42,946 nt of DNA. Origin: a virus. The translations under genes and the position numbers were made by a program. Below the pieces are notes generated by a model. The model worked only from the letters and a program-made list of their open reading frames with translations. It had not been told where the DNA came from and ran no database searches. Where the stretch lies: UHGV virus genome UHGV-1445076; one strand, 5' to 3'. Shown here piece by piece: positions 2,669 through 39,883 of the stretch (its first letter is position 1; every line of letters begins with the position of its first letter).

Positions 2669-3087
2669 AATACATCTTCCCATTCGACAGGAGTCCCGTT
2701 TCCGATACAGTCAGCAAGATAGCGTGTAAGAGCCACGCCGTCGTAACCATCGGTATCGTCCAGATAATCTTTCACGAACAACGCCAGATGAGCCTCGTCT
2801 ACAACAGAGCTTTTAAAATAATCAGCCTTTGCCATATGCCATACATAGACGGCATCATAACCCTTACAATTATCAATATTCAAGTTATATTTTTTCAACA
2901 GGTCTTCCACTGTTTCCTTGGAAGTCATCTCCAACGGCTCTTTCTTGCCTGTGGCCTTGTTGAGTGTGCGCATGCCCTTTATGGCGCATTCACAGAGCTT
3001 TCTTGAAAAATGCCAACCGTACTGAGAAAGATACCGCCTCATCCCTTCCGGCATCTTATCATATGTGTCAAGTCTTTGCATAATCAT
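2665..3087 (-). CDS. hypothetical protein (140 aa)
   Basis: ATG-initiated ORF, coupled to the downstream gene by a 4-nt overlap. Confidence 0.35.
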   Translation of the reverse strand: MIMQRLDTYDKMPEGMRRYLSQYGWHFSRKLCECAIKGMRTLNKATGKKEPLEMTSKETVEDLLKKYNLNIDNCKGYDAVYVWHMAKADYFKSSVVDEAHLALFVKDYLDDTDGYDGVALTRYLADCIGNGTPVEWEDVL

Positions 3088-4439: not shown

Positions 4440-5393
4440 TTAGTTCCAAAACGTCGGCGTGTATCCGCATCCATAACCTGCGTACTGGCCTGCGGCGGCA
4501 CCCACTGCGGCAGCCTTGTATAAGTCTGTGTTTACACCGACTATATTAGGCCATTGTACAGGTACTGTGTTGGGCAACTTGCATTTGATACCGTCGACGT
4601 CGCTCTGGAGTGCCTGCAGTCCTGCTGCCAAGGGTGCGATTTGCTGACCTACGGCATTGAGGATTGTAGCGTTTTGGTTGCGCTGCGAGATTTCGCTTTG
4701 CAAGGTTGCCTTCTCCGCCGTGAGGGCTGCGATTTTGTCCTGCAACGCCTGGTTCTGCATTGCGTCGAGCTTCGCGAGTATGGCGTTGGTGTTGGCCGTT
4801 GCGCCGTCACGGAGCGAGAGGGCGTTGTTGTTCGCGGTGTCTACGAGCGTGTGCGTCTGCTCGCATGTTGCCAGGCGGCTTTCGTAGCCCTGACGCTCCA
4901 CTGCCTGAAGGATGTTGCAGCAGCAGGTTGACAGCTGGTTTACGATACCGTTGTCACCGCTCTGAATGGCGTTGATAATCTGTGTTCCGGTCAGTCCAAT
5001 GCTGTTCTGGATGTTGCACAGTGCACTCTCGATTTGCTGGCTCGAGCAGTTGAGCGTTGACGCGATTTGGTTGATTGCACTCGCGTTGCCTTGGATTGCT
5101 TGCATCAGCAGTTCGCGTCCCGCGTTGCCTGCGAGTTCCGCTGGCAGTCCGTTGCCGCCACGTGAGCCGAAACCTCCGAAGCCTCCGTTGTTCCACCCGA
5201 AGATACTTGCAACGATTGCAAGATAAATCACTCCCCAGATTCCGTTTTGCCCACCGAAGCCACCGTTGCCATTCATCAGTGCCAGCACACCAGGGTCAAT
5301 TCCCCTATTCAGCATTCCGGGAAGCATGGCATTGATGTCATAACGCGCGCCTCCGGAGTTGCCGTCACTGTTAAAAACATAAGTTCTTTCCAT
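4440..5393 (-). CDS. Gly-rich, coiled-coil protein with one hydrophobic helix; possible adsorption or tail-tip protein (317 aa)
   Basis: ATG ORF; N-terminal GGFGG repeats, hydrophobic segment GIWGVIYLAIVASIFGW, long Q/A/L-rich heptad-like region. About 55-63% GC in sampled 60-nt blocks. Confidence 0.4.
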   Translation of the reverse strand: MERTYVFNSDGNSGGARYDINAMLPGMLNRGIDPGVLALMNGNGGFGGQNGIWGVIYLAIVASIFGWNNGGFGGFGSRGGNGLPAELAGNAGRELLMQAIQGNASAINQIASTLNCSSQQIESALCNIQNSIGLTGTQIINAIQSGDNGIVNQLSTCCCNILQAVERQGYESRLATCEQTHTLVDTANNNALSLRDGATANTNAILAKLDAMQNQALQDKIAALTAEKATLQSEISQRNQNATILNAVGQQIAPLAAGLQALQSDVDGIKCKLPNTVPVQWPNIVGVNTDLYKAAAVGAAAGQYAGYGCGYTPTFWN

Positions 5394-30401: not shown

Positions 30402-30665
30402 ATGAAGGAAAAAGTTATCAGATTCGTGACAAACAGATGGTTCGGCTTCGTGGCAGGACTGGTAATCGCAATGCTGTACATGTGGCAGGAACAGAGCCTC
30501 GGCAGCGTCAACGCGTGGATAATGGGAATCATCACACCTATGCTCTTCGGAGCGTTCGCCGAGGTGGTGAGACATGTCACCACGGAGGACACGTACAAGT
30601 GGAAGAACCTGCTGTGGTGGCTCGCGGGAGCTGTCATTGGAGTAGTGGCGATGCTTGTGGTTTGA
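30402..30665 (+). CDS. putative holin (87 aa, three hydrophobic helices)
   Basis: Hydrophobic segments FGFVAGLVIAMLYMW, AWIMGIITPMLFGAFAEVV and LLWWLAGAVIGVVAMLVV; first gene of a cassette ending in the endolysin. Confidence 0.45.
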   Translation: MKEKVIRFVTNRWFGFVAGLVIAMLYMWQEQSLGSVNAWIMGIITPMLFGAFAEVVRHVTTEDTYKWKNLLWWLAGAVIGVVAMLVV

Positions 30666-30747
30666 TTCCCGGCATCCAGGGCAGGGACTCATATGCCCTG
30701 CCCTATCATTTGACTTGATGTATGTACGAATAAAAAAACAAGGGAGA

Positions 30748-30981
30748 ATGAACAAGATTATAATGTGGTTTAAGACAAGCAACCGATGGAAGCATCTGCT
30801 TGGCGGTCTGATTATCGGTATGGGAGCGGATGATATATACTGTGCGGCATACGCAGGCATAGGCGTTGCGGCAGCCCTTGAACTGAAAGACAGGCAATGG
30901 GGCGGCAAATGGGACTGGACAGACTTCGGGCTGACAACAGCCGGAACAGTTGTGGGACAATGCATAAGGATGATGATATGA
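30748..30981 (+). CDS. small membrane protein, second holin or antiholin candidate (77 aa)
   Basis: Track ORF starts at TTG 30655; first ATG at 30748; hydrophobic LLGGLIIGMGADDIYCAAYAGIGVAAAL. Confidence 0.3.
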   Translation: MNKIIMWFKTSNRWKHLLGGLIIGMGADDIYCAAYAGIGVAAALELKDRQWGGKWDWTDFGLTTAGTVVGQCIRMMI

Positions 30982-31586
30982 ACGAGGTACAAAGCACATT
31001 GGAGGTCGCAAAAGGCATAAGCGACTATGGGATAATGATAGTCATCTGCGCGGTGTTCCTGCTGCTCGCCTCAGGTCTGATGATTGCGTGTTTCCGCTGG
31101 TTCAAATCAGCGATAAGCAACATAATATCCTACACTGACGAGCTGCGCGAGCTTAACGGAAAGCTGGAAAACAACAACCACGTCATGGTGACGATAGCGG
31201 AGGGACTGATGCCTGAGACACAACTGCGGATAAAGAACATATCCGGAGCGTTCTTTGACCTTGCGGTGGAGAAAGTATGCAGACTCCTGAAGAAAATAAG
31301 GGAGGAGAACCATATAGCCGACAAGGAAAGGACAAAGGCTAAGATACGCACCCTGCTGAGCAACATGTATGAGGACAGGAACAGCAAGTTCGACAATTTC
31401 CATTACCGTGGGAAAAAGCTCTCGGAGTACTGCAATCCGGAATGGACAGAATGGGTGGCGAAAGTAATAGAGGGAGAGCTGTACAATGAGAACGGTGCGA
31501 ACAACGGAAGAGCCTACACCAACGTCAGCGCAGTATATGACAATATAAAATTGGACTTTTATCACAGAATGACAGACCAGATATGA
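30978..31586 (+). CDS. membrane-anchored protein of the lysis cassette (203 aa)
   Basis: ATG at 30978 overlaps the upstream stop (ATGA); N-terminal hydrophobic anchor GIMIVICAVFLLLASGLMIACF followed by a soluble helical domain. Confidence 0.3.
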   Translation: MNEVQSTLEVAKGISDYGIMIVICAVFLLLASGLMIACFRWFKSAISNIISYTDELRELNGKLENNNHVMVTIAEGLMPETQLRIKNISGAFFDLAVEKVCRLLKKIREENHIADKERTKAKIRTLLSNMYEDRNSKFDNFHYRGKKLSEYCNPEWTEWVAKVIEGELYNENGANNGRAYTNVSAVYDNIKLDFYHRMTDQI

Positions 31587-31616: not shown

Positions 31617-32210
31617 ATGGAAAAGTTTAAAGTTATACTTGATGCGGGACACGGAAGGGACACCGCAGGGAAACGTTCGCCTGACGGACGCCTGCTCGAA
31701 TACGCATACGCCCGTGAGATTGCAGTGCGTCTTGAAAGGGAACTCAAGGCACGTGGATATGACGCGCAGCGCATTGTGCCCGAGGAAAACGACATCTGCC
31801 TGAAAGAGCGGTGCGAAAGGGCAAACAGAATTTATGCCGCGACAGGAAAGAAAGCGATACTTGTCTCAATACACTGTAACGCGGCTGGTGCCGACGGCAA
31901 ATGGCATGACGCCAGAGGATGGTCGGCTTATGTCTCGCGCAACGCTTCAAAGAAGAGCAAAGAGCTCGCCTGCCGTCTGATTGACGCGGCAGAGACACAA
32001 GGACTGAAAGTCCGAAGATACTCACAGGATGAGCCATATTGGACACAGAATCTCGCAATATGCCGTGACACAAATTGTCCCGCAGTCCTGACTGAAAACC
32101 TTTTTCAGGACAACCGGGAGGACGTGGACTATCTGCTGAGCGAGAAAGGCAAGCGAACCATTGTGGAGCTGCACGTGGAAGGCATCATGGCGTACTTGGG
32201 GAAAGTGTGA
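31617..32210 (+). CDS. N-acetylmuramoyl-L-alanine amidase (endolysin, Amidase_3-like)
   Basis: KVILDAGHGRDTAGKRS and VSIHCNAAG motifs match the zinc-binding regions of MurNAc-LAA amidases; 197 aa with no separate cell-wall-binding domain. Confidence 0.8.
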   Translation: MEKFKVILDAGHGRDTAGKRSPDGRLLEYAYAREIAVRLERELKARGYDAQRIVPEENDICLKERCERANRIYAATGKKAILVSIHCNAAGADGKWHDARGWSAYVSRNASKKSKELACRLIDAAETQGLKVRRYSQDEPYWTQNLAICRDTNCPAVLTENLFQDNREDVDYLLSEKGKRTIVELHVEGIMAYLGKV

Positions 32211-32235: not shown

Positions 32236-32264
32236 GACGACAGTTGCAAATTCCGCAACCGTCG
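32236..32264 (+). terminator. candidate stem-loop after the endolysin gene
   Basis: ACGACAGTTGC (32236-32246) pairs with GCAACCGTCGT (32254-32264) with one mismatch, 7-nt loop; only a weak T-run follows. Confidence 0.3.
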
Positions 32265-32348
32265 TAAAGGCGTTCTTTGACATTGTGGGTTGCCGTTAAA
32301 AATACAATATTTTCGAAAAATTATATACAATTATTTTGGGAAATTATA

Positions 32349-32356
32349 TATCTTTG
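32349..32356 (+). promoter_or_regulatory. TATCTTTG -7-like promoter element (fits TAnnTTTG)
   Basis: Motif lies 38 nt upstream of ATG 32394 in an AT-rich stretch; no well-spaced -33 TTTG seen. Confidence 0.2.
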
Positions 32357-32368
32357 CACAATATAAGA

Positions 32369-32390
32369 AGCCCTTACGGCAATAAGGGCT
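32369..32390 (+). other. 8-bp stem / 6-nt loop hairpin immediately upstream of a start codon
   Basis: AGCCCTTA cggcaa TAAGGGCT ends 4 nt before ATG 32394; no T-tract, so more likely a leader structure than a terminator. Confidence 0.3.
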
Positions 32391-32393
32391 GAA

Positions 32394-33023
32394 ATGACAG
32401 ACGGTGTGCCCGTCTTAAATTTAAATTATATGGCAAAGATAAATAATAATTTTGAGAAACGAAAACGCATCACGAAAAATGAAGCGTTGGAACTGCTAAA
32501 AGATTGTTATGAGGACATCTTCAAGGCGTATTACGCAGGTCTGGAAAATTACAATGAAGAAATAAATATGACCATACCTGAAGCAAGGACAAGGCTTGTA
32601 GGTCCTTTGCTTAACGCAAAAATAACAGAGAGTTTCATTCTCACATTTCCCGAGAACTGGAACAAAGGCAAATACGGAAGGATAATATTCAGATGGAACG
32701 GTGTGCTCATGCTCATCAAGAAATTGAACAAGAATGACAAGCCGTCTTACATTCCGACAATACTTTCAGATTCGATTGTCAACCAATACCAATTACCGCT
32801 TTTCCAAGGCGATGAAGGCAAGGAAGAGCCGATATTGATTTTCGGATATACAAAGGACGGTTTCGGGCAGCTCGTAAACCCGAGAATTGTCTTGTATGAC
32901 GATGGGGTTCAATGGACTGCCTATATGGAAGACGGTGTAAATATGCCGACTGCCAATACAGACACGCAGGAGATTATTGTCCGCCTGAAAAAGAAAGAGA
33001 CAGGAGAAAAGAAGGCAGAATAA
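32394..33023 (+). CDS. hypothetical protein (209 aa), first gene of the accessory cassette
   Basis: ATG ORF; alternative ATG at 32430. No recognisable motif. Confidence 0.4.
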   Translation: MTDGVPVLNLNYMAKINNNFEKRKRITKNEALELLKDCYEDIFKAYYAGLENYNEEINMTIPEARTRLVGPLLNAKITESFILTFPENWNKGKYGRIIFRWNGVLMLIKKLNKNDKPSYIPTILSDSIVNQYQLPLFQGDEGKEEPILIFGYTKDGFGQLVNPRIVLYDDGVQWTAYMEDGVNMPTANTDTQEIIVRLKKKETGEKKAE

Positions 33024-33075
33024 CAGCAGGGCACACCGTCTGTTTTCAACAAACGACCTATAAAAGCAACGTCTT

Positions 33076-34131
33076 ATGAAATGTGAGCAGCTAACATTCG
33101 CAAGGGAATACAGGGGATTTACGCAAACCGCACTCGCGGCAAAAGTCAAAGGGCTATCGCAATCCAACCTGTCAAAATATGAAAAGGGGTTTGGCGGGCT
33201 GTCAGACAACATGCTTAGTTTGATTATGTCCACGCTTGATTTTCCGATGAAATTCCTTGACATGAATATTGTGAACAAGGTTGACAGCAAGCATTACAGG
33301 AAAAAGGCAACCATAACCGTAAAGACACGCAACGAGATAGACAGGACAATATCCCTGATTGCGTATTGTTTTGATTGGCTTAGTGAATTTGTCGAGATAC
33401 CTGACTATTCATTTGGATACTACGACATGGACAACGGCATAAGCCCGGAGGAACTTGCCGGGCACATAAGGAACAAATACAGGCTCGGCATGTCGCCTAT
33501 ATCCGATATTTGCAATTTCCTTGAGCGCAATGGGGTATTCATTTACATGTGGGACAGTCCTAACGACGAGTTTGACGGGGTATCCCTGATAACTGACGCA
33601 GGCAATCATCTTATCATTGTGAACAGGAACAGAAGCAACGACAGGGTAAGGTTTACGCTTGCACATGAGCTGGGACACATACTGATGCACGAGTGCCCAA
33701 GTTTCCCGGTATTCAGCATTAGAGACAAGGAGAAAGAGGCGAACGCTTTTGCATCAGAGTTCCTTCTCCCCTCCCAGGCTGTCAGAAACGCCTTGCACAA
33801 TGTCAGGCTCGGACAGTTCCCTGAGCTGAAACGGTATTGGCTTGTTTCCATGGCATCACTTTTGGAAAAGGCAAAAAACATAAACGCCATTGCAAGTGAG
33901 AAGTACAAGTCTATGAGAATGGAGTTCAGCAGACGCCATTGGAATAAGAAAGAACCTTACGAAGTGCCTATTGACAGCCCTACCGTCTTTGAGCAGGCAT
34001 ATAGGCTGGTATCGGACACATTGGGGTATTCAATCAGCATGATTTCGGAAAGCACAGGCTTGCCCGAGGATGTCTTGATAAAGATATTCGGCAAATCTGC
34101 GAGGATAATATCATTAAAGCCACTAATATAA
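33076..34131 (+). CDS. fused XRE-type HTH / ImmA-IrrE family (M78-like) zinc metallopeptidase
   Basis: N-terminal HTH (FTQTALAAKVKGLSQSNLSKYEKG) and C-terminal HExxH in FTLAHELGHILMHE with a downstream Glu, the arrangement seen in ImmA/IrrE peptidases. Confidence 0.7.
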   Translation: MKCEQLTFAREYRGFTQTALAAKVKGLSQSNLSKYEKGFGGLSDNMLSLIMSTLDFPMKFLDMNIVNKVDSKHYRKKATITVKTRNEIDRTISLIAYCFDWLSEFVEIPDYSFGYYDMDNGISPEELAGHIRNKYRLGMSPISDICNFLERNGVFIYMWDSPNDEFDGVSLITDAGNHLIIVNRNRSNDRVRFTLAHELGHILMHECPSFPVFSIRDKEKEANAFASEFLLPSQAVRNALHNVRLGQFPELKRYWLVSMASLLEKAKNINAIASEKYKSMRMEFSRRHWNKKEPYEVPIDSPTVFEQAYRLVSDTLGYSISMISESTGLPEDVLIKIFGKSARIISLKPLI

Positions 34132-34157
34132 CAATTATCTATTTTGATACAACACAG

Positions 34158-34195
34158 GCGGTGACCCACATATCAAGGGTTGCCGCTTTTTGTTT
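34158..34195 (+). terminator. Rho-independent terminator
   Basis: GCGGTGACCC (34158-34167) pairs with GGGTTGCCGC (34177-34186), two G-U wobbles, 9-nt loop, followed by TTTTTGTTT. Confidence 0.5.
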
Positions 34196-34213
34196 AATAA
34201 AAAATGAAAGAAC

Positions 34214-34723
34214 ATGGGAAGATTTAAAGGATTGCTTGTGGTAGTATCGGTGTTGTTGACCGCATCATTATGCGTCAACATACTCCAGTGCAGTAATGCC
34301 GGAAAGAAAACAACGAATCAGGACACAGTACGGACTACATATATAGACACCATTCCGTTCTTGAATCCTGTACCCAAAGACAGTACGGTGATACGGTATG
34401 TTACGGAGACGTTGCCCGTGACTTGCCGCAAAGACACGATATACGAAGAGAAGGGCGGGAATACAGGCGACAGCGTCAAGGTGACACTGCCTATAACTTC
34501 CAAAGTCTATAAGGACAGTACCTATACCGCATACGTGAGCGGATTCCGCGCGAATCTTGACAGTATATTTGTATATCCGAGACACGAGACTGTAACTGTC
34601 ACAAGGTACAAGGAAAGTCCGCGCCTTGGCGTCGGTATTGCCGCAGGTTACGGTATAGGGAAAGACATGAAACCGACACCTTTCATAGGAATATCCGTAT
34701 ATTATAGGCTTTGGCAGTGGTAG
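34214..34723 (+). CDS. secreted or membrane-associated protein with N-terminal signal sequence (169 aa)
   Basis: N-terminus MGRFKGLLVVVSVLLTASLCVNILQCSNA has a basic n-region, hydrophobic core and Cys/Ala cleavage-like region; Thr/Val/Tyr-rich mature part. Confidence 0.4.
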   Translation: MGRFKGLLVVVSVLLTASLCVNILQCSNAGKKTTNQDTVRTTYIDTIPFLNPVPKDSTVIRYVTETLPVTCRKDTIYEEKGGNTGDSVKVTLPITSKVYKDSTYTAYVSGFRANLDSIFVYPRHETVTVTRYKESPRLGVGIAAGYGIGKDMKPTPFIGISVYYRLWQW

Positions 34724-36655: not shown

Positions 36656-36912
36656 TGCTGACCTCCTTTCTTCAAATCATTCAAAGCCTTGTCATTGCAG
36701 CTTTTACAAAACAATTTATTGAGAGTTCCTTTTAGCATGACTAAATAGACATCATCGTCATCCTTGAACTTGCGGTTGCAATTAAAACAAAGCCTTTGAA
36801 CATAAAGCCCTATACTTTCTCTCGACTTGCGGAACTGCCAGAATTTCAAGAATGGCTTATCAACAGCGTTTAGTACCTCGTATTCACGTTTGGTGATTTT
36901 CACTACTTTCAT
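36652..36912 (-). CDS. small zinc-ribbon protein (86 aa)
   Basis: CFNC...CKSC pairs; ATGA overlaps on both sides. Confidence 0.35.
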   Translation of the reverse strand: MKVVKITKREYEVLNAVDKPFLKFWQFRKSRESIGLYVQRLCFNCNRKFKDDDDVYLVMLKGTLNKLFCKSCNDKALNDLKKGGQQ

Positions 36913-37283
36913 TTTATACCTCCTTTCAGTAGCTCTGGGTTGTCGTGGATGTTGCCGATTATCGTTGCTTTATCGGTAGGAAGGAAGCCTAATCTTTCAA
37001 TACCTCCGATAAAAGAGCATTCAGAATCACTATATTCCACATCCACAATATCTCCGTCTGGAAATTGAATAATATCCCCTTCGTAAATCTCCTTCCCCTT
37101 TTTATCATACAAGCCTGTGAACTGGCTTACGGTGGAGGGGGCGATTTCTCGTTTCCACACGGCATTAGAGCTGTCGCTCTTTTCGAGAATGTTGCAGTCT
37201 CCGTCCGCCCATATTAAAAGCGAACCATAGCACCACTCATCGTTTGCAAGGCGTTTGCCTCTGAACTTGATTGCTCGTTTCAT
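36909..37283 (-). CDS. YopX family protein
   Basis: C-terminal IIGNIHDNPELL matches the characteristic YopX signature (GNI..NPELL); 124 aa, typical for the family. Confidence 0.6.
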   Translation of the reverse strand: MKRAIKFRGKRLANDEWCYGSLLIWADGDCNILEKSDSSNAVWKREIAPSTVSQFTGLYDKKGKEIYEGDIIQFPDGDIVDVEYSDSECSFIGGIERLGFLPTDKATIIGNIHDNPELLKGGIK

Positions 37284-37591
37284 GACCGCACCTCCTTTCC
37301 GTCGGACAGAAGGTCGTCAAGATAGGCGAACTTGTCAACCTCTCCCCATAATCGTTCAAACGACAGGTCGCGCAGGTCTTTGTAGACAGCGGCATTCCCG
37401 TTCTTGAATAAGACGAGTGTCTTGCGCTTAGGTTGGCAAGATACAGTGCCGTTGTGCCACACGGCGTTGATGCGCCAGTTGGCACCATCTATAAACCCAT
37501 GTTCATAATACGGCACGTATTTTGGATTGAAGATGCTGTTGTCAATAACACAACTTTCTGTTGCCGCCTTTTCAATCTGTTCTCTTGTCAT
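37280..37591 (-). CDS. hypothetical protein (103 aa)
   Basis: ATG ORF, coupled to yopX by a 4-nt overlap. Confidence 0.4.
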   Translation of the reverse strand: MTREQIEKAATESCVIDNSIFNPKYVPYYEHGFIDGANWRINAVWHNGTVSCQPKRKTLVLFKNGNAAVYKDLRDLSFERLWGEVDKFAYLDDLLSDGKEVRS

Positions 37592-37624
37592 ATCTTATTT
37601 GTATTAATATTCTTTCCCTCCATT

Positions 37625-37789
37625 TTATCTTGTGATTTTAGAGGAAATTTTCCTTGTATTTCCTTTGTTTTCCTTTGCCAAACACTCATTGCCACATCTT
37701 CTGCCCACGTCGTACTTATCGCACCATCCGTCTCCGTAGAAGCCTTCGTTAATGAAGTGGATACATGAGCCGCAGTGTCTTGCTTTCAT
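37625..37789 (-). CDS. small Cys-rich ORF (54 aa), coupled to the PP-loop gene
   Basis: ATG at 37789-37787 overlaps the stop of the upstream gene (ATGA); translation MKARHCGSCIHF...GWCDKYDVGRRCGNECL, TAA at 37627-37625. Below the ORF-track size cut-off. Confidence 0.25.
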   Translation of the reverse strand: MKARHCGSCIHFINEGFYGDGWCDKYDVGRRCGNECLAKENKGNTRKISSKITR

Positions 37790-38703
37790 TTTTCGTCGTC
37801 TTTAAATTCAAATTTCTGTTGCAGGAACTCGTCAGCGTAGAACTGCTTGTAGCTCTTGTCGCTTATCCACCACCTAAAGCCTGTTTCAGCGTCGTTGAAA
37901 TTGTGGTCGATATATCCGTTGTCTATCAGCCATTGGATTGTCTTTATCCAATTGCGTTTGACGTGCGGCCAGCGTTTAGCATCTTCCTTCTTTATCCGTG
38001 CGTTCGACATAGGGCAACAGATGCAGCCAATGCGTGTATAACCCTCGTCGTAGAGTTCGCAGTGTGGTATGCCGTTCATGTTAAGGAACTCCCACACGTC
38101 GCGCTCCGTCCAATAGATTATGGGCGATACAAGGATTTTGTCCTTACCGCCGACACACGCAACCATGCTCTCCTCATGTTCGCTCCATTGGTCAAAGGTT
38201 TCCTCATTGCGCTTGCCCTTTATCTCTGTGGATATTTCCTCACGTTTTGCACGCCGTGCGCTTTCTTCTTTTCTCACACCGATAAGTGTCACCTTGCCAA
38301 CGCCTGACGTTTCCTTGAACTCGGCACAACACCAACGCAAAGTCCTTGTCGGCAAGATGTGCTTTTTCTTCGCCATTTCGTAAATGCTCATCCGTGGTTT
38401 GATTAGCTCCACATCGGGGTATTGCGTCTTGACGAAGCGGATGACTTCGGGCGGGTCTATGCTCGTAAGGTTCATGTGAGCCTTGAAGCGGACACCGGCC
38501 AGCTTTGCGACATGGTAGAGGCATTGGCTGTCCTTGCCGCCACTGAACGCAAGGTAAAAGCCGTTTTCGGGGTCGAGGCGCAACGCCATTTTCTCCGACT
38601 TCCGCAAAAGTTCGACGGAGTGTTCCAGCTTCCTTGCAAGCGGACGGCTTACCTTTGACATTACGGTGTCGTGGTCAAGCAGTATTATTTCACACGCTTT
38701 CAT
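37786..38703 (-). CDS. PP-loop ATP pyrophosphatase, PAPS-reductase-like (CysH/DndC-like) protein
   Basis: YLAFSGGKDSQCL carries the SGGxDS PP-loop motif; C-terminal Cys cluster RIGCICCPMS; 305 aa. Confidence 0.65.
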   Translation of the reverse strand: MKACEIILLDHDTVMSKVSRPLARKLEHSVELLRKSEKMALRLDPENGFYLAFSGGKDSQCLYHVAKLAGVRFKAHMNLTSIDPPEVIRFVKTQYPDVELIKPRMSIYEMAKKKHILPTRTLRWCCAEFKETSGVGKVTLIGVRKEESARRAKREEISTEIKGKRNEETFDQWSEHEESMVACVGGKDKILVSPIIYWTERDVWEFLNMNGIPHCELYDEGYTRIGCICCPMSNARIKKEDAKRWPHVKRNWIKTIQWLIDNGYIDHNFNDAETGFRWWISDKSYKQFYADEFLQQKFEFKDDEK

Positions 38704-38828
38704 TTTGCCTTGTCTTTAAGTTTGAATATAAATTCCATCAGTTGTTTGTTCTGCTGGCGGTACCTGTCAACCTCGGCTTGCAGGAAGTCAATCTCGTTGT
38801 GGTACGCCTCACGCTCAAAGTCAGTCAT
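38700..38828 (-). CDS. small helical ORF (42 aa), coupled to the PP-loop gene
   Basis: Hand translation MTDFEREAYHNEIDFLQAEVDRYRQQNKQLMEFIFKLKDKAK; its TGA overlaps the ATG of the downstream gene. Confidence 0.25.
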   Translation of the reverse strand: MTDFEREAYHNEIDFLQAEVDRYRQQNKQLMEFIFKLKDKAK

Positions 38829-38834
38829 CGTTCA

Positions 38835-38981
38835 CTAATCGTCTACAATGGCTTTTGCTAAACCGAAGAGAAGGATATATATTCCTAACATGAGCAGTAC
38901 CCATGGGAAACTTGTCAACATCCATATAGAGGCTGCCACGCAAAGTGCACCGGCATGGATGATTAGTTCAGTTCTGTTCAT
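38835..38981 (-). CDS. small two-helix membrane ORF (48 aa), coupled to the radical SAM gene
   Basis: Hand translation MNRTELIIHAGALCVAASIWMLTSFPWVLLMLGIYILLFGLAKAIVDD; ATG overlaps the radical SAM stop (ATGA). Confidence 0.25.
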   Translation of the reverse strand: MNRTELIIHAGALCVAASIWMLTSFPWVLLMLGIYILLFGLAKAIVDD

Positions 38982-39883
38982 TGCTTCATATTTTTAAGTT
39001 TGTAACTATTCTCATTAAGCCACTTTTGGAAATACCATAACTGACCGCATCCGCCACCTATATCGTCTTGCCCTGCCGGGTTAAATACTCTCGTATTAAA
39101 ACCTACGTCATTCATCTTTGAATTAAAGTCACGGATTAAGTCAAGTTGTCGCTGTATTGATGAATGTACACTTTCATCCTTTTCGCAAATAACAGACAAA
39201 GTGACCTCCCATATATCAGGGTTAAATAATTCAGAGAGCCTCATAGCATCTTCCATATCATTATTCCCGACATGTACGCAATAATTAAAGAAAGGCTTTC
39301 TTCCGACATAAGAAGCCCAAAACTCACCCGTAGAAGCTATTTGCCGAAGTGTTGACGTATTCGTTGCTATAAGTTTCTTCCTTTTTTCATCTGTACTTTC
39401 ATGTACTGAAAATTGAAGACCTACTTTATCTATTTCTTTCGATAGTGCAATAAAATCAGACATGTATAAATACATCATGTGAGGGGCAGAAGTGCTTACA
39501 AGAAGTTGTGCGTTTGGATATTTCACATGTAGACTTTCTATTGCAGGCTGCAATGCCGAGTAGTTGTAAAAAGGCTCTCCCATGCTCATAAACATAATTT
39601 GGAACTTTTTAATGTCATCAGTGCGGCAATCAATAGTAGATAATGCCCCATCAATCTGTTGTATTATTTCGTCAGTAGAAAGATTTCTGACAAAAAATTT
39701 GCCTGTTCCGCAGAAAGAACATCCAACTGGACAACCGCTTTGAACCGAACAACATATAACTGTCCTTTTTTTGTATTCTCCATATCTATAAAGAACAGTT
39801 TCAGCAATAGCATTTGGCTTGTCCCACTCAAACACGAATTTCTTTACATTCGTATCACTTGATTCAAATACTTTTGTTTTCAT
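38978..39883 (-). CDS. radical SAM enzyme, RlmN/Cfr-like minimal form (301 aa)
   Basis: CCSVQSGCPVGCSFCGTG carries Cys51-X3-Cys55-X2-Cys58 in the S-Q-x-G-C-xxx-C-x-F-C-x-T pattern of RlmN/Cfr; MSMGEP motif; C-terminal GGGCGQL resembles the second mechanistic cysteine motif of RlmN. Confidence 0.65.
   Translation of the reverse strand: MKTKVFESSDTNVKKFVFEWDKPNAIAETVLYRYGEYKKRTVICCSVQSGCPVGCSFCGTGKFFVRNLSTDEIIQQIDGALSTIDCRTDDIKKFQIMFMSMGEPFYNYSALQPAIESLHVKYPNAQLLVSTSAPHMMYLYMSDFIALSKEIDKVGLQFSVHESTDEKRKKLIATNTSTLRQIASTGEFWASYVGRKPFFNYCVHVGNNDMEDAMRLSELFNPDIWEVTLSVICEKDESVHSSIQRQLDLIRDFNSKMNDVGFNTRVFNPAGQDDIGGGCGQLWYFQKWLNENSYKLKNMKQ

Follow-up and report, generated by a model that had tools for sequence, protein, structure and literature searches.

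A mobile cassette in the lysis module of a Bacteroidales phage pairs an RmrA-type protein with a putative, previously unannotated toxin partner

In the virus genome UHGV-1445076 (a stretch of 42,946 nt, called here the window, to which all coordinates refer), a two-gene cassette joins an unannotated gene, which we call T, to a gene, A, that encodes an RmrA-type protein. With somewhat better than even confidence, we read this cassette as a RosmerTA-type toxin-antitoxin (TA)/anti-phage module that travels as a mobile, self-transcribed moron, and T is best read, from sequence comparison, as a new and previously unannotated family of toxin partners. In RosmerTA, the antitoxin is a Zn-peptidase and the toxin has no known function; an rmrA deletion was not transformable (bioRxiv 10.1101/2022.05.11.491447). 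The cassette and its control elements comprise the following features.

32237–32265: stem-loop after the endolysin gene, a palindrome with a 13-bp stem; part of the phage backbone or junction, not of the cassette proper
32274–32296, plus strand: junction element CTTTGACAT-TGTGGGTTGCCG, upstream of the cassette promoter
32299–32356, plus strand: promoter/operator region, with three repeats about 22 bp apart in the window clade, namely AAAAATACAA (32299–32308), AAATTATATACAA (32318–32330) and AAATTATATATCTTTG (32341–32356)
32369–32390, plus strand: leader hairpin 1, 8-bp stem AGCCCTTA/TAAGGGCT, loop CGGCAA
32399–32415, plus strand: leader hairpin 2, stem AGACGG/CCGTCT, loop TGTGC
32430–33023, plus strand: gene T, unannotated partner and putative toxin/effector, 197 aa from the corrected start; the open reading frame (ORF) reaches back to 32394
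33076–34131, plus strand: gene A, RmrA-type, 351 aa, with a helix-turn-helix (HTH) domain at about aa 4–60, an M78/ImmA-IrrE domain at about aa 165–265 and a C-terminal extension
34156–34195, plus strand: intrinsic cassette terminator, a 12-bp stem (34156–34188) followed by a T-run

Gene A encodes an RmrA-type protein. A first-pass annotation of this DNA had described a fused HTH/ImmA-like peptidase here, and the ORF indeed carries the Pfam domains HTH_3 (Xre type) and Peptidase_M78. It matches 14 RmrA models of PADLOC, the best at E 5e-59 over aa 3–343 of 351, as well as phrog_2439 in PHROGs (5e-75); the NCBIfam model 'spr1629 family repressor/antitoxin' also matches it, below that model's own cut-off. 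The HExxH motif is intact, reading HELGH at aa 197–201 (nt 33664–33678), and H197, E198 and H201 are invariant in 17 diverse homologues, across which the N-terminal HTH (QLTFAREYRGLTQ..L...V.GLSQSNLSKYEKG) is nearly unchanged. The nearest solved relatives are CapP and IrrE, both weak and distant matches, and the RmrA-like genes of deposited phages are only 24–32% identical to A.

We found that T and A almost always occur together. Among loci retrieved through T, an A homologue lay 46–226 nt downstream in all 51, at identities ranging from 97% down to 41% and including two loci from Flavobacteriia. When viral loci were retrieved through A instead, with patterns specific to this A subfamily, a T-family ORF stood directly upstream in 79 of 80, representing 47 distinct T proteins. 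The two sets of loci overlap in part; overall, both genes were present in 132 loci, A alone in one and T alone in none. A TA pair is expected to show just this, an orphan A but no orphan T. The identities of T and A to the window pair are correlated (r = 0.95), with T diverging faster, and the A proteins of the phage and of Segatella copri share 53% identity. In the window, T ends 52 nt before A on the same strand, with no terminator between them. The sole A without T among the 80 viral loci (L139, IMGVR_UViG_2537561632_000002, 2950–3010) retains the same promoter box and an adjacent TTATATACAA repeat, and has a short, unstructured leader.

The first-pass annotation had also reported a 209-aa protein without recognisable motif, preceded by a leader hairpin that ended 4 nt before the start codon. 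The ORF exists and matches no family, and the hairpin is supported by covariation (below); the start codon at 32394 is probably wrong. Nearly all of the 124 clusters of T homologues are 195–199 aa long and begin at the equivalent of M13, position 32394 reads ATT rather than ATG in the closest relatives, and leader hairpin 2 overlies what would be codons 2–8 of the long form. For these reasons, translation most likely begins at ATG 32430, giving 197 aa, rather than at ATG 32394.

The T family comprises at least 155 distinct proteins, which form 124 clusters at 90% identity; at 50% identity, it accounts for 118 representatives among 1.84 billion. The family is small and restricted to metagenomes, metagenome-assembled genomes (MAGs) and a few genomes, namely those of S. 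copri, of uncultured Bacteroides/Prevotella, and of Rasiella and Maribacter (Flavobacteriia). The window protein and five distant members had no match in Pfam, PHROGs, NCBIfam, PADLOC or the sequences of the PDB, and tblastn found T neither in INPHARED phages nor in PLSDB plasmids. The T accessions WP_217744757 and WP_308764945 drew no mention in the literature or in the NetFlax supplements. In the T gene, G+C content is 37–41%, as against about 50% in the lysis genes.

The remote-homology and structure check that had been proposed for this protein gave a confident AlphaFold (AF2) model (predicted local distance difference test score 82.6, core above 90), and searches of that model with Foldseek against PDB and BFVD returned nothing significant. 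As modelled, T is a soluble, basic alpha/beta protein: four helices lead into a sheet of six strands interrupted by one helix, after which comes a disordered basic tail. The predicted fold may resemble that of restriction endonucleases, though only weakly, and comparison with their alpha-beta-beta-beta-alpha-beta core is no more than suggestive. Across the 155 distinct members, the near-invariant residues are R96, K109 (100%), K110, P117, T122, Q131, G151, Y152 and W174. A canonical PD-(D/E)xK nuclease is ruled out: the catalytic acids of the D...(D/E)xK motif are missing, and only K109, K110 and R96 are conserved. The pattern of conservation suggests a basic surface that may bind nucleic acid or a phosphate-bearing ligand. 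At the C-terminus (32980–33023; aa 186–209 of the long form), the disordered tail ends in a conserved basic cluster followed by A-E; it reads KKAE in most main-clade members, and K199 is K or R in 95% of members. This tail could be a degron or a protease recognition site.

The comparative data agree with the proposal that the two genes form an independently transcribed unit, with a conserved promoter of its own and, in most copies, a terminator of its own. The TAnnTTTG-like element recorded in the first pass is TATCTTTG at 32349–32356, a Bacteroidota -7 box (TAtcTTTG; consensus TAnnTTTG) contained in the third repeat. By itself, the TAnnTTTG motif is about as frequent in the window as chance predicts (31 copies against 28 expected). 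The -7 box TATAT(C)TTTG together with the ATACAA/TTATATA repeats is kept in all 30 distinct upstream regions of T-derived loci, as well as in the distant clades that were inspected, including Flavobacteriia. A scan with E. coli-type sigma-70 patterns returned nothing relevant. The promoter/operator remains near-invariant even though the proteins fall to 28–45% identity, making the 5' region the best conserved part of the unit. Because the HTH and the repeats are equally near-invariant, we read the ATACAA/TTATATA repeats as the probable autoregulatory operator of A's HTH.

Between this region and T there is likely a 5' leader of about 65 nt containing two hairpins, an arrangement shared by most cassettes. 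In 33 distinct homologous leaders, aligned by fitting to the covariance model's own structure, hairpin 1 showed compensatory changes at 8 of 8 pairs, with 92% of cells paired compared with 31–47% in slid controls, and at least eight different stem sequences occur among the clades. Hairpin 2 was weaker: both-side changes were seen at five of six pairs, only 66% of cells were paired, and the stems differ between clades. The covariance model, built from the promoter box and both hairpins, recognised this combined element in 31 of 38 sources, including clades outside its seed. RNAalifold on a plain MAFFT alignment of the leaders gave no structure, as unequal loop lengths misaligned the arms, and realignment with the covariance model solved this; an Rfam search of the cassette gave no match. 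The orphan-A locus and a few distant clades lack the hairpins, which we therefore think modulate rather than define the system. Hairpin 1 is also unlikely to be the operator of the HTH, since its sequence varies freely while the HTH is invariant and since both hairpins are missing from the orphan-A locus and some distant clades. On the minus strand, a T-run comes after hairpin 1, which may terminate antisense transcription.

At the other end of the unit, the Rho-independent terminator noted in the first pass is supported: it folds at -22.5 kcal/mol (z -4.9), and none of 200 shuffles was as good. Most other cassettes with downstream sequence likewise have a GC-rich hairpin and T-run after A, with differing sequences.

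The earlier view of the cassette as a moron-like accessory unit was borne out by comparison with other genomes. A close relative, L054, lacks T and A and runs from the amidase endolysin gene to the DUF6808 gene, the two genes that flank the cassette in the window; its holin, p229 and amidase flanks are 97%, 98% and 94% identical, respectively. Remnants of the cassette persist in L054 between amidase and DUF6808: operator sequence as far as ATTATATAT, roughly the final 15 nt of A, and the terminator. We also found the cassette alone (window 32266–34189, 83–90% DNA identity) in L019, L029 and L030. Two of these are phages from IMG/VR and one is a 134-kb contig from a Prevotella MAG, and the flanks of all three share nothing with the window; in the foreign backbones L029 and L030, DNA homology stops on the right at the cassette terminator. 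More divergent copies follow a GH108 lysin in another phage, stand beside KilA-N/HicB genes, or adjoin the integrase of the temperate phage L017. A further, non-phage locus of S. copri, found on 242 contigs, carries the cassette among glycosyltransferase, sulfatase and ATPase genes, and in all the cassette occurs in two classes of Bacteroidota. Because the same cassette lies in unrelated backbones and in the S. copri locus, and is missing from a close relative, we conclude from these sequence comparisons that it is a genuine moron-like mobile module. It has the presence/absence polymorphism of a phage moron and a promoter and terminator of its own, the latter two being sequence predictions backed by conservation.

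The boundary of the insertion site has features of its own. The stem-loop after the endolysin, which the first-pass annotation had listed, is present and is a candidate terminator of the late/lysis transcript; its fold is not significant by shuffling alone (z -1.27). In the near-identical phages L026 and L027 (4844–4872), the centre of this palindrome is inverted (GCAAATTCCGC versus GCGGAATTTGC), the hairpin having been flipped as a unit. The junction element follows the endolysin gene and is present with a subset of cassettes (window clade, L020, L016/22, L043/48, L032 and L051); it is kept in the cassette-less L054, at 4790–4830. In L019 (2745–2840), the hairpin and a junction element, GCGTTCTTTGACAT-TGTGGGTTGCCG, also precede a different, three-gene cassette, which encodes proteins of 184 aa, 146 aa (an Xre HTH protein) and 140 aa, has a TAtcTTTG box of its own, and is followed by a copy of the window's right-end sequence (34158–34236). 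The site downstream of the endolysin thus looks like a hot spot with repeated boundary sequences at which self-contained cassettes are exchanged.

Under the RosmerTA-type reading, the host-type promoter with its -7 box at 32349–32356 would drive a single bicistronic mRNA of about 1.8 kb, with a predicted start at 32362–32366, comprising the structured leader, T, A and the terminator at about 34156–34195. A would act as the RmrA antitoxin: its HTH would bind the ATACAA/TTATATA repeats that overlap the promoter and repress the operon, and A would also keep T harmless. Phage infection or a related stress would disturb A, with the zinc-protease domain as a possible signal-responsive part by analogy with ImmA, IrrE and CapP, and the freed T would stop the cell or the invading phage. 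The carrier phage could benefit through protection of the lysogen or infected cell from competitors, or through stabilisation of the element. The earlier suggestion of a possible toxin-antitoxin, abortive-infection or exclusion function gains support from the peptidase gene being an RmrA, the antitoxin of the RosmerTA defence/TA systems; the toxicity of T, its neutralisation by A, binding of the HTH to the operator, the trigger and the defence are what we infer.

Several observations weigh against this reading. T, in the form of the window protein and five distant members, matches none of the PADLOC RmrT models even at E <= 10. As a consequence, RosmerTA membership holds for only one of the two genes: the locus has the RmrA profile, the HExxH motif and an adjacent, co-oriented gene, and lacks a catalogued RmrT profile. 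The negative result is meaningful because the same library, applied as a positive control to the Clostridioides phage phiCD418, detects RmrT (1e-78) and RmrA (2e-164) in the same toxin-first order. In addition, this RmrA subfamily stays with one partner family, whereas RosmerTA is described as swapping partners (PMC10440598). The T protein itself offers no invariant acid among its 155 members (no acidic position exceeds 82% D+E), no conserved His, no transmembrane segment and no recognisable toxin chemistry. Lastly, with regard to the lifestyle of the carrier phage, no integrase is encoded within the window.

These same features of T are part of the case for a different account, in which T and A form a stress-responsive regulatory pair. 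Here, A would be a one-chain repressor-protease (compare ImmR plus ImmA, or DdrO plus IrrE) that controls only the expression of T, and T would be a non-toxic accessory, for instance a factor for exclusion or host modification that binds DNA/RNA, whose expression would be turned on by inactivation of A. The absence of a toxin signature in T would fit, as would the fact that conservation within the unit peaks in the operator-like repeats and the HTH; characterised M78 proteases (ImmA, IrrE) act on HTH repressors, and deposited phage records label such fused proteins 'cI-like repressor'. However, one such labelled protein, that of phiCD418, scores as RmrA and sits beside RmrT, and RmrA-type proteins behave as antitoxins in published experiments (bioRxiv 10.1101/2022.05.11.491447; PMC10440598). 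Toxicity of T would be consistent with one orphan A and no orphan T among the loci, and the T-A pair also stands alone at a chromosomal site that does not look mobile. We regard the regulatory pair as unlikely, but not negligible.

We considered it highly improbable that A is the phage's own immunity repressor, lysis-lysogeny switch or lysis-timing regulator, with T as its partner and the cassette part of core phage regulation. The cassette does adjoin lysis genes or an integrase in phages, yet the close relative L054 does without it, the same cassette occupies unrelated backbones and a non-phage S. copri locus, and in the temperate phage L017 a divergent HTH pair, distinct from the cassette, resembles that phage's own switch. 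Equally hard to credit is counter-defence, whereby a phage RmrA-like antitoxin would neutralise host RosmerTA-type toxins and T would be incidental: S. copri, the host species, has chromosomal copies of the same family that a phage A could cross-neutralise, but T is kept intact with A in 79 of 80 viral loci, the two co-diverge, and identity between the A of the phage and that of S. copri is only 53%.

We next describe the phage that carries the cassette. The window is part of a Bacteroidales-type tailed phage with a tape-measure protein, a large terminase and an SPP1-type portal, and the carrier is a Bacteroidales siphophage of the Prevotella/Segatella type. The same phage is represented on metagenomic and IMG/VR contigs of 57–85 kb; no near-identical DNA, and no close relative, was found among deposited phages. 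The following genes surround the cassette.

30402–30981, plus strand: two small overlapping ORFs of 87 aa and 108 aa, both hydrophobic, upstream of the phrog_19698 protein and the amidase
30897–31586: phrog_19698 protein, between the two small hydrophobic ORFs and the amidase
31617–32210: Amidase_3 endolysin (Pfam)
34214–34723, plus strand: DUF6808 gene, 169 aa, hydrophobic N-terminus, phrog_26448, downstream of the cassette

The pair of small ORFs is 97–100% conserved among relatives and likely represents holin-type genes. The DUF6808 gene directly adjoins the amidase endolysin in six other phage loci as well as in L054, and probably serves Bacteroidales phages as an accessory (spanin-like) lysis gene. 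Because of this adjacency, the cassette interrupts the lysis module; the first-pass annotation had placed it between the lysis genes and the early operon, a location that does not hold. In L019, a lipoprotein-like gene of 149 aa occupies the place equivalent to DUF6808. Further to the right lies a minus-strand block (36909–39883) with YopX (36909–37283), PAPS-reductase-like (37786–38703) and radical-SAM (38978–39883) genes, which may constitute a DNA or nucleotide modification pathway; relatives swap DNA methylase, DUF4406 or HIRAN genes into its place.

These findings bear on a system that is widespread, whose mechanism is not understood and whose toxin slot is open-ended, and the locus adds an effector family that defence catalogues have missed; given that T has no RmrT match, PADLOC presumably does not call the T-A pair as a complete system. 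The T family is common in S. copri and its phages, S. copri being a dominant bacterium of the human gut, and may have relatives in actinobacterial phages. The fidelity of the T-A pairing, the operator/HTH pair and the covarying leader provide experimental handles on RmrA-type regulation and toxin release. The apparent moron hot spot within the Bacteroidales phage lysis module is also relevant to how phages compete with one another in the gut.

In its overall design, the cassette resembles RosmerTA. A matches RmrA profiles over its full length, from the HTH through the M78 zinc peptidase to the C-terminal region; the two genes form a toxin-first operon, an order found in 58% of systems, whose RmrT toxins are diverse (PMC10440598); the unit is carried both by phages and on chromosomes; and the partner is without known function, as in the original description. 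A phage-borne RmrTA, that of Gordonia phage Kita, defends against other phages (PMC10440598). The Kita RmrT has a membrane segment, whereas T has none, and the three-repeat operator and covarying two-hairpin leader seen here are not described for RosmerTA in the accounts of Millman et al. 2022 and Ernits et al. 2023. The cassette also has the general traits of a type II TA system, that is, a small bicistronic operon, a patchy mobile distribution and an antitoxin with a DNA-binding domain, together with probable autoregulation. Fused COG2856-Xre proteins beside phage toxins were noted as early as 2009. In phiCD418 (L141, MW512573.1, 49186–51123), the RmrA is deposited as 'putative cI-like repressor protein' and the RmrT gene upstream of it as hypothetical; by the PADLOC models, this pair is a RosmerTA system rather than an immunity repressor.

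A second group of relatives couples the same M78/COG2856 HExxH fold to an Xre HTH: ImmR/ImmA of ICEBs1, DdrO/IrrE of Deinococcus, and CapH/CapP of CBASS (cyclic-oligonucleotide-based anti-phage signalling system). In these, the repressor and the protease are separate proteins and regulate other genes (for excision, DNA repair and CBASS, respectively), whereas in A they are fused and the sole linked gene is T; no CBASS or integrative and conjugative element genes are adjacent to the cassette. An element regulator of the ImmR/ImmA type was accordingly rejected, as the HTH and protease are fused, the cassette is also found outside mobile elements, and it is dispensable in L054.

Another parallel to the pair as a whole may be found in the Gordonia phages Howe and Shlim410, in which gp34 and gp33 lie next to the integrase in the same order and encode a 206-aa hypothetical protein and an RmrA-like protein (RmrA 2e-59). 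Like T, gp34 is missed by PADLOC. With a small T alignment, hhalign gave no support for a relationship to the partner proteins of phiCD418 or Gordonia (Gordonia probability 0.08%). When the 155-sequence T alignment was compared with the Gordonia gp34 family, the hhalign probability was 78.6% (E 1.7e-5) over 156 columns, nearly end to end; the invariant R, K-K/R, P-T, G-Y and W positions coincide, and the AlphaFold models have their secondary-structure elements in the same order. The Gordonia family differs in its acidic C-terminal tail, where that of T is basic, in its invariant D, E and H, which are absent from T, and in its Actinomycetota hosts. We regard homology between the two families as marginal and as a lead. 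If it holds, T and gp34 could, at long odds, found a class of effectors that spans phyla, depends on RmrA and has a new activity, in which a restriction-endonuclease-like scaffold that has lost its metal-binding acids would present a conserved Arg/Lys/Thr/Gln surface acting on nucleic acids or nucleotides, the A protease could cut the disordered basic tail of T, and T or A could recognise the covarying two-hairpin leader as a cis-regulatory RNA; such a system would be distinct from RosmerTA.

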